Made by a program: the position numbers and the translations under genes. Below are positions 846 through 9,608 of a DNA stretch of 31,486 nucleotides, in pieces. The stretch is taken from IMG/VR virus record IMGVR_UViG_3300022690_002678; one strand, given 5' to 3'. The notes beneath the pieces are model-generated. The model worked only from the letters and a program-made list of their open reading frames with translations. It searched no databases and was not told where the DNA came from. Numbering within the stretch: the stretch's first letter is position 1; every line of letters starts with the position of its first letter. This DNA comes from a virus.

Positions 846-1967
846 TTACAGTGGCGTTTCTATTGGATCTGGTTCCCTAACTAGGATGGATATTGTATCT
901 GTACTTGTCACTCCTTTACGATCAGTTACTGCAAGTTGAAACTCTGCATTTCCTGTTTCTTCTGTTGCTGTAAATGTTGCAATAGCATTTTTAGAATTAG
1001 TTAAGGTACCCTCTACTCCTGATAACTGAATCCAAGAATAAGTTATTGTATCGCCATCAGGATCTGAACTTTTAGAACCGTTTAGATTAATTGATTCATT
1101 AACAAATACTTCATCATCTTCACCTGCATCGGCCACTGGTGAATGATTGCTAGAATCGCTTCCAATTACCATATTAATCACAAACATTGTAGTAGTTTTT
1201 GTAATAGTTTGATCAAGATAAGATAAAATCACGTCAACATCATATTCGCCTGGTGGAGAAATATTTGCTGGAAAGTACCATTCTCCATCCCAATGACCAT
1301 TATTTGCAGTAACACCAGATAGAGTTGCAACTGGATTATCATCAAGTGATATCAAAACTTTGACATCTACACCGTCAATTCTTCCATGAAAATCACTAGA
1401 TGATTTTGGATCAGAATTAATATTGCAATCAAATGATTGAATATTTATATCAAAATTTTGCATCCAATATGTTCTAAAGTCGTGCGATGAGGTCATGCAC
1501 AAGTCTGCAACGTATGGTGTTTTCTCTTTGGTTATCTCTGTTTCAATTATTTTTTCTTTGGAAAATGGAATGGCAGATGTTGTTGGAAATTTAATCAGTC
1601 CTTTGTCTGTTGAAAAATATACATTGATCTTATAATTTCCAAGCTCTGCATTCTTGTGACCATAAATTAAAATCCCATCAACTGCACTTGAAATTCTAAA
1701 ATGATTTCCAGTACTTGTAACTCTAATTTCGGGTTCTCTTAGAGGAACCTCATCGCCATAAAATTCCAAAGTTATATCATCTAAATGATTAGTTATCCAA
1801 TCTCGTGCTATTCCTTGTCTTACTGTATCTGCACCAAACTCAATATACACTGAGATTACTGCACTTTCACCTACCAGAGTAACTTCTTGTAGTGTATTGT
1901 TGTTTACTGCATATGCTGGATTTAGCAGCAAAGGAATCAAAAGTAATGAAAACAAAAGTTTCTTCAA
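846..1967 (-). CDS. Secreted/surface protein with C-terminal PKD/REJ-like Ig domain
   Basis: Signal peptide MKKLLFSLLLIPLLLNPAYA; C-terminal PVADAGED...LNGSKSSDPDGDTITYSWIQLSG...FQLAVTD signature; TTG start ~25 nt downstream of a minus-strand TTTTATAAATA (1991-2001). Confidence 0.85.
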   Translation of the reverse strand: MKKLLFSLLLIPLLLNPAYAVNNNTLQEVTLVGESAVISVYIEFGADTVRQGIARDWITNHLDDITLEFYGDEVPLREPEIRVTSTGNHFRISSAVDGILIYGHKNAELGNYKINVYFSTDKGLIKFPTTSAIPFSKEKIIETEITKEKTPYVADLCMTSSHDFRTYWMQNFDINIQSFDCNINSDPKSSSDFHGRIDGVDVKVLISLDDNPVATLSGVTANNGHWDGEWYFPANISPPGEYDVDVILSYLDQTITKTTTMFVINMVIGSDSSNHSPVADAGEDDEVFVNESINLNGSKSSDPDGDTITYSWIQLSGVEGTLTNSKNAIATFTATEETGNAEFQLAVTDRKGVTSTDTISILVREPDPIETPL

Positions 1968-2016
1968 TGAATCTTTTAGGTCTTTGCATGTATTTATAAA
2001 ATTAGTGGAAGAACTC

Positions 2017-2023
2017 TTTATCC
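2017..2023 (+). promoter_or_regulatory. Probable TATA box of the tRNA gene
   Basis: TTTATCC located 25-31 nt upstream of tRNA position 1 (2048). Confidence 0.45.
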
Positions 2024-2047
2024 ATAATTAATACAAAGTAAATTTGT

Positions 2048-2118
2048 GGGCTCGTAGTGAAATGGTATCACATCTCCGTGAAACCGAGAAAGTTCGGGTT
2101 CGATTCCCGACGAGTCCA
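2048..2118 (+). tRNA. tRNA with anticodon GAA (Phe) but alanine acceptor identity (G3:U70, A73); CCA not encoded
   Basis: Acceptor GGGCTCG(2048-54)/CGAGTCC(2111-17); T8 A9; D stem GTGA/TCAC with loop AATGGTA; anticodon arm TCTCC-GTGAAAC-CGAGA (C31.C39 mismatch, GAA at 2080-82); variable AAGT; T arm TCGGG-TTCGATT-CCCGA; A15/U48 Levitt pair; discriminator A2118. Confidence 0.9.
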
Positions 2119-2135
2119 CACTAAATTAATCAATT

Positions 2136-2182
2136 AAAAAAAAGAAAGTTAGTGAAATACTCACCAAATCTCCGTGAAACCT
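2136..2182 (-). ncRNA. Predicted antisense sRNA A, complementary to the anticodon arm and D arm of the adjacent tRNA
   Basis: 2168-2181 is an exact 14-nt copy of tRNA 2072-2085; TAGTGAAAT and TCAC are also shared. Minus-strand TATA TTTAATAA (2212-2205) puts +1 at ~2181; ends in minus-strand TTTCTTTTTTTT (2147-2136). Confidence 0.65.
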
Positions 2183-2467
2183 ATTGTACAATTAGTTAAG
2201 CTGCTTATTAAATGATAACTAAATTACCGAACCTGTCAATCTCAGACGGTTTTTGGCAGTCCACACTTATTTTCAGAAAAATAAAAAAAGAAAGTCAGTG
2301 AAATAGATCACCAAATTCTCCATGATAACTATTGTACAATTAGTTAAGCTCGTTATTAAAGCATTCTGAAAAATATTGCAACTCTGCGCTTTATTTTTCC
2401 ATTAGACTCTACCAAGATAAATGATTTATTCCAATGATATACCATAGTCTATTAAAATTGTACAATT
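2183..2467. promoter_or_regulatory. Three copies of perfect palindrome ATTGTACAAT (putative operator)
   Basis: At 2183-2192, 2331-2340 and 2457-2466 (third extends to AATTGTACAATT); in the first two it lies between the minus-strand TATA box and the predicted +1. Confidence 0.6.
2283..2330 (-). ncRNA. Predicted antisense sRNA B, paralog of A, matching an anticodon arm with GAT (Ile) instead of GAA
   Basis: Same cassette 148 nt downstream (TTATTAAA 2353-60, ATTGTACAAT 2331-40, GTGA..TCAC hairpin, A7GAAAG tract); variable part TCTCC-AT-GAT-AA-C (2317-2329) aligns with tRNA TCTCC-GT-GAA-AC-C. Confidence 0.6.
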
Positions 2468-2489
2468 ACAATAAAGTGATCTAATAAAT

Positions 2490-2578
2490 AAAAAAGAGAT
2501 CTAGTAAAAAGTTACATAACATGCCAGTGAAGTAACGAAAGTGTTTGGTAACAAATGAAGAGCTACTTCACTGACACT
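2490..2578 (-). ncRNA. Predicted hairpin sRNA C with loop antisense to the leader/RBS of the gene at 2695
   Basis: 15-bp stem 2576-2562/2536-2522 whose two mismatches are G:U only on the minus strand; loop segment 2547-2561 matches 2671-2685 at 14/15 (the difference gives G:U); minus TATA TTAAATAA at 2609-2602; T-tracts at 2510-2506 and 2495-2490. Confidence 0.65.
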
Positions 2579-2601: not shown

Positions 2602-2649
2602 TTATTTAATCTTTAAGATCAATTTGTGATTCATAGAATCCTTAAATAA
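2602..2649. promoter_or_regulatory. Back-to-back divergent TATA boxes (both TTAAATAA)
   Basis: TTAAATAA on minus at 2609-2602 and on plus at 2642-2649; the latter predicts +1 near 2671-2673. Confidence 0.6.
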
Positions 2650-2694: not shown

Positions 2695-2961
2695 GTGGTA
2701 GTATTTGCAGCTAACATTACAGAATTTACACTTGCTCTAGTCGCTGATCTTTTAGCAACTGATCGCTGTGTAAAATTTAGCCAGCTAAACAAGCTGAATC
2801 TATCAGACAATACGATCTTGATTAGATTAGCACTAATCAATCTAGTGAGGCATCTGCCAGATAATGACGAGGTTCAAAAATACAAGGCAGCATTGCAACG
2901 TCCCCATGAATTTGATGACTTTTTGAAAGAAGAGTTAGGGGGCATCAACAGTGCAGTCTGA
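2695..2961 (+). CDS. First gene of rightward operon; possible ribbon-helix-helix-like regulator
   Basis: ORF track start (TTG 2656) lies upstream of the predicted +1; in-frame GTG 2695 has GGAG at 2681-84. Beta-strand-like VVFAANI followed by two helices (..NTILIRLALINLVR). Fold call is weak. Confidence 0.6.
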   Translation: MVVFAANITEFTLALVADLLATDRCVKFSQLNKLNLSDNTILIRLALINLVRHLPDNDEVQKYKAALQRPHEFDDFLKEELGGINSAV

Positions 2962-8937: not shown

Positions 8938-9078
8938 ATGAAGGAATCACAACTAAAGGCTCGCGAAACCAGACTCAACAACCATCTACAAAATAATGAA
9001 CTTCTTACCCCCTATGAAAGACAAGCAACCAAAGAAAAATTGGCTACATACATTGACAAAAGGAAAAGAATAGAATGA
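8938..9078 (+). CDS. Small basic protein (MKESQLKARE...)
   Basis: AGGAG RBS; coupled to a 38-aa ORF at 8825-8941 and to the Cdc48-N gene. Confidence 0.6.
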   Translation: MKESQLKARETRLNNHLQNNELLTPYERQATKEKLATYIDKRKRIE

Positions 9079-9608
9079 CTGATTTCATAAAACTCAGATG
9101 CAAGGAATCCTACACCAGAGATGTTGGACGTGGACATCTCAGACTTGATTATTACTCAATGGACAAGCTGAAAATATCTACAGGTGATATTATTGAGATA
9201 GAGGGCAAGAAAAAGTCAGTAGCCAAAGCATTACCATTGTATCCTACTGATGAGGGAAAAGGAATGGCAAGAACTGATGGTATAGTTCGAGAAAATATGG
9301 AATTAGTTGTTGGTGAGGAGATAAAAATTACCAAAGTCAAATCTCATGATGCAATCAAGATAGTTGTCAAATCAGAAAATGTAATTCCTCCAATTGATGA
9401 GCGATACCTTACTGATGCCTTTGAGGGAATGGCAATCTCTATTGATGATTATATCATGGTTACATACTTTGGAGGGCGACTGAAATTCCAAGTGGTTAGT
9501 ACAGTTCCACAAGGTGCAGTAGTAGTTACTCGCTTGACTAATTTTGTTATAGAGGGAAAAAAAGAAGATGATAAAGTCACATGTCCTACTTGTGGGAGTC
9601 TGGTGTGA
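9075..9608 (+). CDS. Stand-alone Cdc48/p97/VAT N-domain (double-psi barrel plus CDC48_2), no AAA module, C-terminal CPTCG
   Basis: ESYTRDVGRG..RLDY.SMD.L..STGDIIEIEG...VAKALPLYP.DEGKG..R.DG...IPPIDERYL.DA...YFGGRL.FQV, as in archaeal Cdc48 N-termini; stop follows immediately. Confidence 0.92.
   Translation: MTDFIKLRCKESYTRDVGRGHLRLDYYSMDKLKISTGDIIEIEGKKKSVAKALPLYPTDEGKGMARTDGIVRENMELVVGEEIKITKVKSHDAIKIVVKSENVIPPIDERYLTDAFEGMAISIDDYIMVTYFGGRLKFQVVSTVPQGAVVVTRLTNFVIEGKKEDDKVTCPTCGSLV

Follow-up and report, generated by a model that had tools for sequence, protein, structure and literature searches.

The window, a 31,486-nt stretch of DNA that is part of a 109,872-nt contig, carries a tRNA gene with the body of tRNA-Ala and the anticodon of tRNA-Phe, next to a short gene predicted to encode an RNA complementary to its anticodon arm. 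Sequence comparison strongly supports the pairing of such mismatched tRNAs with co-evolving anti-tRNA genes. The two genes together probably constitute an all-RNA toxin-antitoxin module, in which an alanine-bodied tRNA, predicted to put alanine at Phe codons, would be neutralised by an adjacent 45-nt antisense RNA. Extra mismatched tRNAs and anti-tRNA genes occur in ammonia-oxidising archaea and their viruses. The preliminary description had read the locus as a miscoding tRNA with an anticodon-specific antisense RNA, and this is supported by co-variation, by antisense polarity in four layouts and by a confirmed prediction at a GTC locus, the toxin role being predicted.

The tRNA gene (2048-2118, plus strand) matches RF00005 (58 bits, E 3e-10), the sole Rfam family matched over the window, and is labelled Phe GAA by ARAGORN, that is, named from its anticodon (2080-2082). 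The acceptor stem, as read from the sequence, comprises G1:C72, G2:C71, G3:U70 and C4:G69 and is followed by A73, as in tRNA-Ala, so that both marks of the tRNA-Ala identity class (G3:U70 and A73) are present; together these results bear out the Ala identity with a GAA anticodon proposed earlier. G3:U70 is given as the chief alanine determinant in PMC9976931, whose Table 1 lists G20 and C13-G22 as needed for archaeal Phe identity besides GAA and A73. The resident tRNA has GAA and A73, but U20 and A13-U22 in place of the other elements of the canonical archaeal tRNA-Phe set. Its fold is 7/5 with a variable loop of 4 nt; U33 and A37 are normal, while G32, U20 and the C31.C39 mismatch are unusual. 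In genome G119, which carries several family members, the ordinary tRNA-Ala also has G3:U70, and tRNA-Ile has G3:C70. A purine-rich element and a TATA-like box upstream (2007-2023, plus strand; box at 2016-2023, 25-32 nt before G1) form the predicted promoter of the tRNA gene, a role suggested by archaeal promoter spacing. The same bases might be taken for a third, vestigial cassette preceding the tRNA, but they read better as this promoter, and that reading was rejected. No ORF of at least 50 aa overlaps 1968-2630, and avoidance of Phe codons by the element was not seen, Phe accounting for 5% of 4612 codons in 16 genes. A contig from run X2 that covers window positions 1867-2136, but not the cassette, represents a near-identical strain with A instead of G at tRNA position 32.

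Two cassettes, A and B, follow the tRNA with a spacing of 148 nt and are 87% alike across 47 nt. On the minus strand each contains, in order, a TATA-like box (2205-2212 in A, 2353-2360 in B), a palindrome, a complement of the anticodon arm, a hairpin and a U-tract, the last seen on the plus strand as an A-tract (2137-2148 and 2283-2294). Positions 2072-2085 of the tRNA recur exactly at 2168-2181 in cassette A (14 nt), as does a strand of the D stem at 2150-2158, whereas cassette B carries a GAT loop at 2317-2329; the earlier statement that A matches the resident tRNA perfectly and B differs with a GAT loop is correct. When the anticodon-arm query is shortened slightly, cassette A still matches over 13 nt, against at most 9 nt in 204 other 300-nt windows of the contig.

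Cassette A is predicted to encode the antitoxin of the resident tRNA, an antisense RNA of about 45 nt (2136-2182, minus strand) that ends in a U-tract; its unpaired 5' seed is complementary to the anticodon loop and its internal hairpin to the D arm. Its putative promoter (2183-2212, minus strand), assigned from the sequence and the TATA spacing of the family, comprises the TATA-like box and a 10-nt palindrome (2183-2192) by the predicted transcription start. The first 9 nt of RNA A are unpaired in its predicted fold (z -2.3). The computed duplex of RNA A with the resident tRNA reaches -40.8 kcal/mol, compared with -24.6 kcal/mol for RNA A with the best other family tRNA and -32.0 kcal/mol for RNA B with the resident tRNA. 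None of the duplexes of RNA A and B with 16 ordinary tRNAs of G119, a set without host tRNA-Phe and the tRNAs of the true host, is stronger than -25.7 kcal/mol.

Cassette B is predicted to encode an orphan antitoxin, RNA B (2283-2330, minus strand; block 2317-2329; fold z -1.9), specific for a GAT-anticodon tRNA that is missing at the locus; its candidate promoter (2331-2360, minus strand) consists of a palindrome (2331-2340) and the TATA-like box. Just ahead of this cassette lies a 9-nt copy of the tRNA 3' end (2258-2266, plus strand, identical to 2113-2121), at a similar distance to the next A-tract, which is likely a remnant of a lost second tRNA gene once paired with cassette B; the preliminary description had overlooked it. 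This copy suggests that a GAT module at the window lost its tRNA and retained the antidote. Transfer RNA relatives with exactly the loop of cassette B were found on other contigs in runs X1 and X4, the X4 contig, from the same study as the window, giving a 13-nt match to cassette B with no further arm difference listed. These tRNAs, and the GTC contig described below, were read off difference tables from single contigs at a depth of about 5, so they serve as evidence of presence only. Between the cassettes there is also a small hairpin followed by a T run (2228-2252, plus strand; fold -6.2 kcal/mol, z -1.45, not significant).

The order of TATA-like box, palindrome, complement, hairpin and U-tract set out in the preliminary description holds at both cassettes, but the palindrome is not a family feature, its core occurring in one of 30 promoters. 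A third copy of the palindrome (2457-2466) lies within a leftward promoter-like stretch (window 2360-2490) that is partly kept in loci L072 and L084 and would drive transcription of an AT-rich region. Likewise, an array of cassettes is present here, but most loci have a single cassette, and a second, non-matching one beside a tRNA was found only here and in G308, where an AAG tRNA with a partner of its own is immediately followed by an orphan GTC cassette, which obeys the same logic as cassette B.

Relatives were sought with a tRNA pattern that requires G3:U70, excludes alanine anticodons and fixes A or T at position 35. In the phylum this pattern matched 5 of 301 genomes and yielded 8 real tRNAs in 4 genomes, all amoA-positive; in the class, 19 of 401 genomes were matched, with 33 real tRNAs in 17 genomes after two non-tRNA rows were dropped. 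The module is patchily distributed (17/401 genomes), with up to 5 copies per genome by one pattern. When these 401 genomes were screened for anticodons with G35 or C35, 0 and 3 tRNAs of these types emerged, respectively, together with three further A35 members. Nothing claimed here depends on G673, which is flagged as unpublished. The set analysed below comprises 36 tRNAs from the class survey, the window and loci L008, L016 and L101, one identical duplicate being collapsed, and includes the anticodons GAA (17), AAG (7), GTC (4), CAG (3), GAG (3), AAC (1) and GAT (1). In G119 the modules come on top of ordinary tRNAs, and its contig C1 carries at least nine (L295, L300, L302, L336-L338, L350, L410 and L415), seven of alanine type, one of them decayed, and two of serine type. 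The majority of copies are chromosomal. Among the viral and metagenome loci, L008 (Ala body, GAA) belongs to a tailed virus, G001, which is complete and encodes capsid, terminase and portal proteins, and L101 (Ala body, AAC) belongs to the window's own element family. No tRNA was found in 48 virus records sharing the capsid protein of G001, most of which are fragments and two at least 90% complete.

Several loci depart from this design. L008 (1501-1665) and L101 (3400-3551) seem to use another type of antidote. A conserved hairpin precedes the tRNA on the same strand, and its loop is an exact 8-nt complement of the respective anticodon loop; between L008 and L101, 5 of the 8 loop positions are different. 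Serine-type bodies with a long variable arm, G73 and GAA, TAA or TAT anticodons (Phe, Leu, Ile) were observed at L072 (3051-3135), L078 (1872-1953), L105 (1502-1586), L350 (1501-1584) and L415 (443-526). Next to each lies a hairpin with a match of 8-13 nt to the variable arm of that tRNA, and these loci may represent a second branch of the same tRNA/antisense logic. The alanine-bodied GAA tRNA of L016 (576-647), on a viral contig, has no cassette; its leader and trailer could pair over about 15 nt and so lengthen the acceptor stem. In L367 and L368, which are alanine-bodied with an enlarged anticodon arm of ambiguous register, a 17-nt cassette match is still present. The high-GC viral contigs L010, L031 and L047 carry G3:U70 tRNAs with a TAA anticodon; an adjacent complement over the anticodon was not seen in L031 and L047, nor beside further viral G3:U70 tRNAs that bear foreign anticodons, including actinophage-like ones.

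Whether the cassette adjacent to G3:U70 tRNAs with non-Ala anticodons varies together with the anticodon was a check proposed in the preliminary description, and its outcome is positive. A perfect complement of 12-18 nt over the tRNA's own anticodon, at most 600 nt away, is present for 25 of the 36 alanine-bodied non-alanine tRNAs, compared with 2 of 1260 non-cognate pairings reaching at least 12 nt, both with the same anticodon, and none of 922 with a different anticodon. The 12-nt level was reached by no control tRNA, either ordinary viral (0/57) or ordinary archaeal (0/16 on the main contig of G119, maximum 8 nt). Taking all 29 tRNAs of G119, four reach the threshold, namely one family member and three neighbouring tRNA copies on other contigs. 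A threshold of 8 nt is non-discriminating, being reached by 266 of the 1260 non-cognate pairs. Partners were accepted for 32 of the 36 tRNAs, L016, L313, L315 and L316 being set aside, and these four tRNAs without an accepted partner are a point against the module reading; among nine tRNAs found later, a partner was present in eight and absent at L370. Because the copies are related, the co-variation counts, which cover 35 distinct arms and seven anticodons, are not independent events. Copies inside one genome have differing arms, each matching its own neighbour. The earlier proposal has specificity set by the anticodon; the match spans the whole anticodon arm, tRNA positions 28-40, and so extends beyond the three anticodon bases. 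A blind prediction came from a 3499-nt sediment contig in which the 5' half of a tRNA is followed by a cassette with the anticodon GTC. The GTC loop expected for its tRNA was confirmed by the same 11 letters in the tRNA. By duplex energies, the best partner of each cassette is the neighbouring tRNA in 30 of 30 cases, a comparison that is partly circular.

The cassettes occur in four layouts. Most (21) lie upstream in divergent orientation, 8 are in tandem downstream, 2 in tandem upstream, and 1 is downstream and convergent. All four would give a tRNA-complementary RNA; in ten loci the reverse complement lies on the tRNA's own strand. Among 30 partners of the long type, 26 have a TATA-like box 25-31 nt before the seed, 29 a U-tract 28-52 nt after it, and 25 have both, compared with 2, 2 and 0 in the opposite polarity and with 0.8% having both at random positions. 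Co-variation and this promoter/terminator polarity point to an antitoxin-like RNA gene that adjoins the tRNA and is specific for it. Across tRNA positions 28-40, each position shows Watson-Crick pairing in 27-30 of the 30, that at positions 34-36 being perfect by construction; pairing drops outside this interval and returns at positions 8-12. The predicted unpaired probability is 0.78 for the seed and 0.37 for the body, the seed being higher in 29 of 30. In the 5' block, G.U wobbles outnumber A.C mismatches (42 versus 6, with 19 of the 42 coming from one position), while in the anticodon block the difference (20 versus 13, p 0.3) is not significant. In the tRNAs themselves, 25 of 36 have no 31:39 pair; this defect would make strand invasion easier, and it may weaken decoding and hinder an anticodon-reading synthetase. 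G32 occurs in 7 of 36, a purine at position 37 in 34 of 36, and the T arms are intact.

A search starting from the cassettes was noisy (69 matches versus 44 in a reversed control), and 11 new family-like rows were chosen from it by eye. These included three with an intact matching tRNA, two with a decayed tRNA, two with a 5' stub only, two with no matching tRNA, and two chance matches, L406 and L407, which show no tRNA and were dropped. At L410 a broken acceptor stem lies beside an intact cassette, and altogether seven loci have an intact cassette with a tRNA that is broken, truncated or absent. The clearly partnerless tRNAs, L313 and L316, have no upstream promoter as judged by eye, and L313 abuts a transposase. 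Decay is asymmetric, the antisense gene being kept and the tRNA lost, as in toxin-antitoxin pairs. A transposase-type domain occurs within 1.5 kb of 15 of 37 module loci and of none of 16 ordinary tRNA loci of G119, a control consisting of one genome. The 113 ORFs that neighbour the family loci revealed no partner protein in common.

The gene content of the window is virus-like and includes methylases, an HNH nuclease and an 869-aa protein nearest to mostly viral clusters. One marine sediment run contains the window sequence and may be where it originates. Its status as a virus is likely rather than shown, because no capsid or terminase family was found among its 60 ORFs. The next gene has a homologue attributed to a thaumarchaeal genome. 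An 88-aa protein (window 2695-2961), with 213 homologues, looks like a ribbon-helix-helix regulator, although it has no family match, and an imperfect palindrome upstream of its gene (window 2609-2619), conserved in 34 of 38 related loci, is probably its operator. The 10-nt palindrome of the cassettes was rejected as the operator of this neighbouring regulator, its core being found in 4 of 38 loci while the different upstream motif is kept in 34. Among 42 metagenome loci related to the ribbon-helix-helix-like protein, 22 of them with at least 800 nt upstream, ARAGORN found a tRNA in three, none at the position of the module, which is thus an accessory insert. The protein has no confirmed relatives in the viral or genome collections, and exact 18-19 nt probes from the tRNA and the cassette matched no viral contig. 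The window also encodes a stand-alone CDC48 N-terminal domain without the ATPase part (9075-9608), as do L062, L077 and L087, possibly a decoy or adaptor.

In the proposed mechanism, the host alanyl-tRNA synthetase would charge the resident tRNA, because this enzyme presumably reads G3:U70 and ignores the anticodon, and alanine would be inserted at Phe codons here and, across the family, at bulky hydrophobic or Asp codons. The free 5' end of the small RNA would pair with the anticodon loop, unzip the weak stem and then engage the D arm, thereby blocking decoding or triggering decay of the tRNA. Loss of the module or a halt in transcription would free the tRNA, presumably the more stable partner, and arrest the cell, resulting in addiction or abortive infection. 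Cassette B may be a retained antidote against the GAT-anticodon tRNA of rival elements. Addiction, abortive infection and inter-element conflict cannot be separated as the role by sequence alone. The reliance of alanyl-tRNA synthetase on G3:U70 means that anticodon variants can misincorporate alanine; among engineered yeast tRNA-Ala, as reported in 10.1101/2022.11.23.517754, the GAA variant mistranslates with moderately slower growth, and the CAG variant slows growth strongly. The moderate effect of the GAA variant is a point against the toxin reading. Phenylalanyl-tRNA synthetase could compete for the resident tRNA, because GAA and A73 are Phe determinants; the archaeal enzyme is described as also reading G20 (PMC9976931), and the resident tRNA has U20.

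A use of the tRNA in regulated mistranslation, with controlled misincorporation of alanine under stress or infection and the antisense RNA as an off-switch instead of an addiction antidote, is conceivable but unlikely. Mistranslating tRNA-ProX genes are natural in Streptomyces and raised the carbenicillin tolerance of E. coli (PMC10404621), many copies of the present family lie among housekeeping genes, and their weak anticodon stems suggest a tuned-down activity. However, the modules are patchily distributed, single genomes carry several different anticodons, the antisense gene outlasts the tRNA, transposases are close by, and the 113 neighbouring ORFs include no common partner protein. It also seems improbable that the tRNA works outside decoding, as an anticodon-nuclease decoy or a synthetase sink controlled by the antisense RNA. 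The odd loops, including G32, and the broken 31:39 pairs would fit such a role, and some allo-tRNAs near toxin-antitoxin genes are reported as non-translating, yet two of six killed cells (PMC5389517). Against it are the purine retained at position 37, the intact T arms and the concentration of anticodons on A35 and GTC in spite of the G35 and C35 searches, and a nuclease decoy would need no alanine acceptor.

It is very improbable that host tRNAs are the targets, with the cassettes acting as toxins or regulators and the element's tRNA as a resistant substitute. The precedent is CreT, which is described as poisoning by sequestering a tRNA (PMC12737573), but the partly circular comparison of duplex energies makes the neighbouring tRNA the best match of each cassette, and the limit of -25.7 kcal/mol applies to RNA A and B with the 16 ordinary G119 tRNAs, a set lacking the true host's tRNAs and host tRNA-Phe. 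We find it scarcely credible that the cassettes are functionless, decayed partial tRNA duplications, even though those of the window repeat the 5' half of the tRNA on the same strand and a tandem repeat includes B. The ten loci with the reverse complement on the tRNA's strand, the polarity of promoter and terminator (antisense 25/30, sense 0/30), the near-perfect pairing at positions 28-40 that falls outside them and the confirmed GTC prediction all contradict it; the preliminary description had named non-covarying, decayed duplications as the outcome that would overturn its reading, and co-variation and antisense polarity dispose of that case.

Beyond the toxin-antitoxin module itself, a broader view, which we hold to be possible but fall short of calling probable, is that ammonia-oxidising archaea harbour a widespread, programmable RNA conflict system. 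Mobile elements would carry Ala- or Ser-bodied tRNA poisons with Phe, Leu, Ile, Val and Asp anticodons, each disarmed by a dedicated anti-tRNA RNA. Elements and hosts would collect orphan genes of the kind of cassette B as sequence-specific immunity against the tRNAs of rivals. If the module reading itself is true, it would be a natural, protein-free system of about 150 nt with a tRNA as the weapon and an antisense RNA as the safety catch. It would explain a class of 'extra' tRNAs that ARAGORN assigns to the wrong amino acid, offer a testable reason why toxic mismatched tRNAs persist, and add a candidate addiction or defence module to a globally important nitrifying lineage. Since specificity would come from base pairing over the anticodon arm, such pairs might be used to switch suppressor tRNAs orthogonally.

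No published description of a miscoding tRNA with an antisense antidote was found in the literature searched, which covered few subscription papers, and nothing similar appears in the consulted parts of a survey of thaumarchaeal mobile elements (PMC6563490), the tRNAscan-SE 2.0 paper (PMC8450103) and a review of mistranslation (PMC11415595). The allo-tRNAs of Acidobacteria, with 8/4 or 9/3 folds, likewise combine Ser or Ala identity with foreign anticodons; they are reported as missense-active, kill E. coli and are often near toxin-antitoxin genes, the word 'antisense' is absent from the main text of the paper, and no RNA partner was seen for them (PMC5389517). The resident tRNA differs in being archaeal and of an ordinary 7/5 fold, without the 8/4 or 9/3 structure and long variable arm. 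The tRNA-ProX genes (ProA, ProN and ProT) of Streptomyces and Kitasatospora are also natural dual-identity tRNAs, reported to mistranslate and to be toxic in E. coli, and the word 'antisense' does not occur in the main text describing them (PMC10404621). They have proline identity and a dedicated synthetase gene (ProRSx), whereas the acceptor stem here has G1:C72 and G3:U70, synthetase families are absent among the window ORFs, and the linked gene is a complementary RNA with no partner protein.

In type I toxin-antitoxin systems of the hok/sok type, the mRNA of a protein toxin is the target of a short antisense RNA, which is encoded nearby and acts through an unpaired 5' seed. The modules described here resemble them in having a seed-led antisense RNA against a neighbouring gene and convergent or divergent layouts, but the predicted target is a tRNA, the two genes do not overlap, and no ORF of at least 50 aa overlaps 1968-2630. 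In type VIII systems, exemplified by SdsR-RyeA of E. coli and CreTA of Haloarcula hispanica, both the toxin and the antitoxin are RNA; SdsR is an mRNA-targeting small RNA. The same is predicted here, toxicity from engineered analogues and the pattern of decay, and neutralisation from duplex energies. According to the accounts of type VIII systems in PMC11951105 and PMC12737573, CreT also hits translation via a tRNA and acts by addiction, but it is a small messenger RNA by which a host tRNA is sequestered, and the CreT promoter is repressed by CreA via Cascade. Here, the predicted toxin is the tRNA itself, and the antidote would pair with it directly. Cas families are absent among the 60 window ORFs and the 113 family-locus ORFs, and Rfam detected no CRISPR repeat family in the window, unlike the CRISPR-Cas setting of the crRNA-like antitoxin of CreTA. 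If toxicity and rescue hold, the module would be type VIII by definition, yet its parts and mechanism would be unrelated to those of the type VIII systems compared here.
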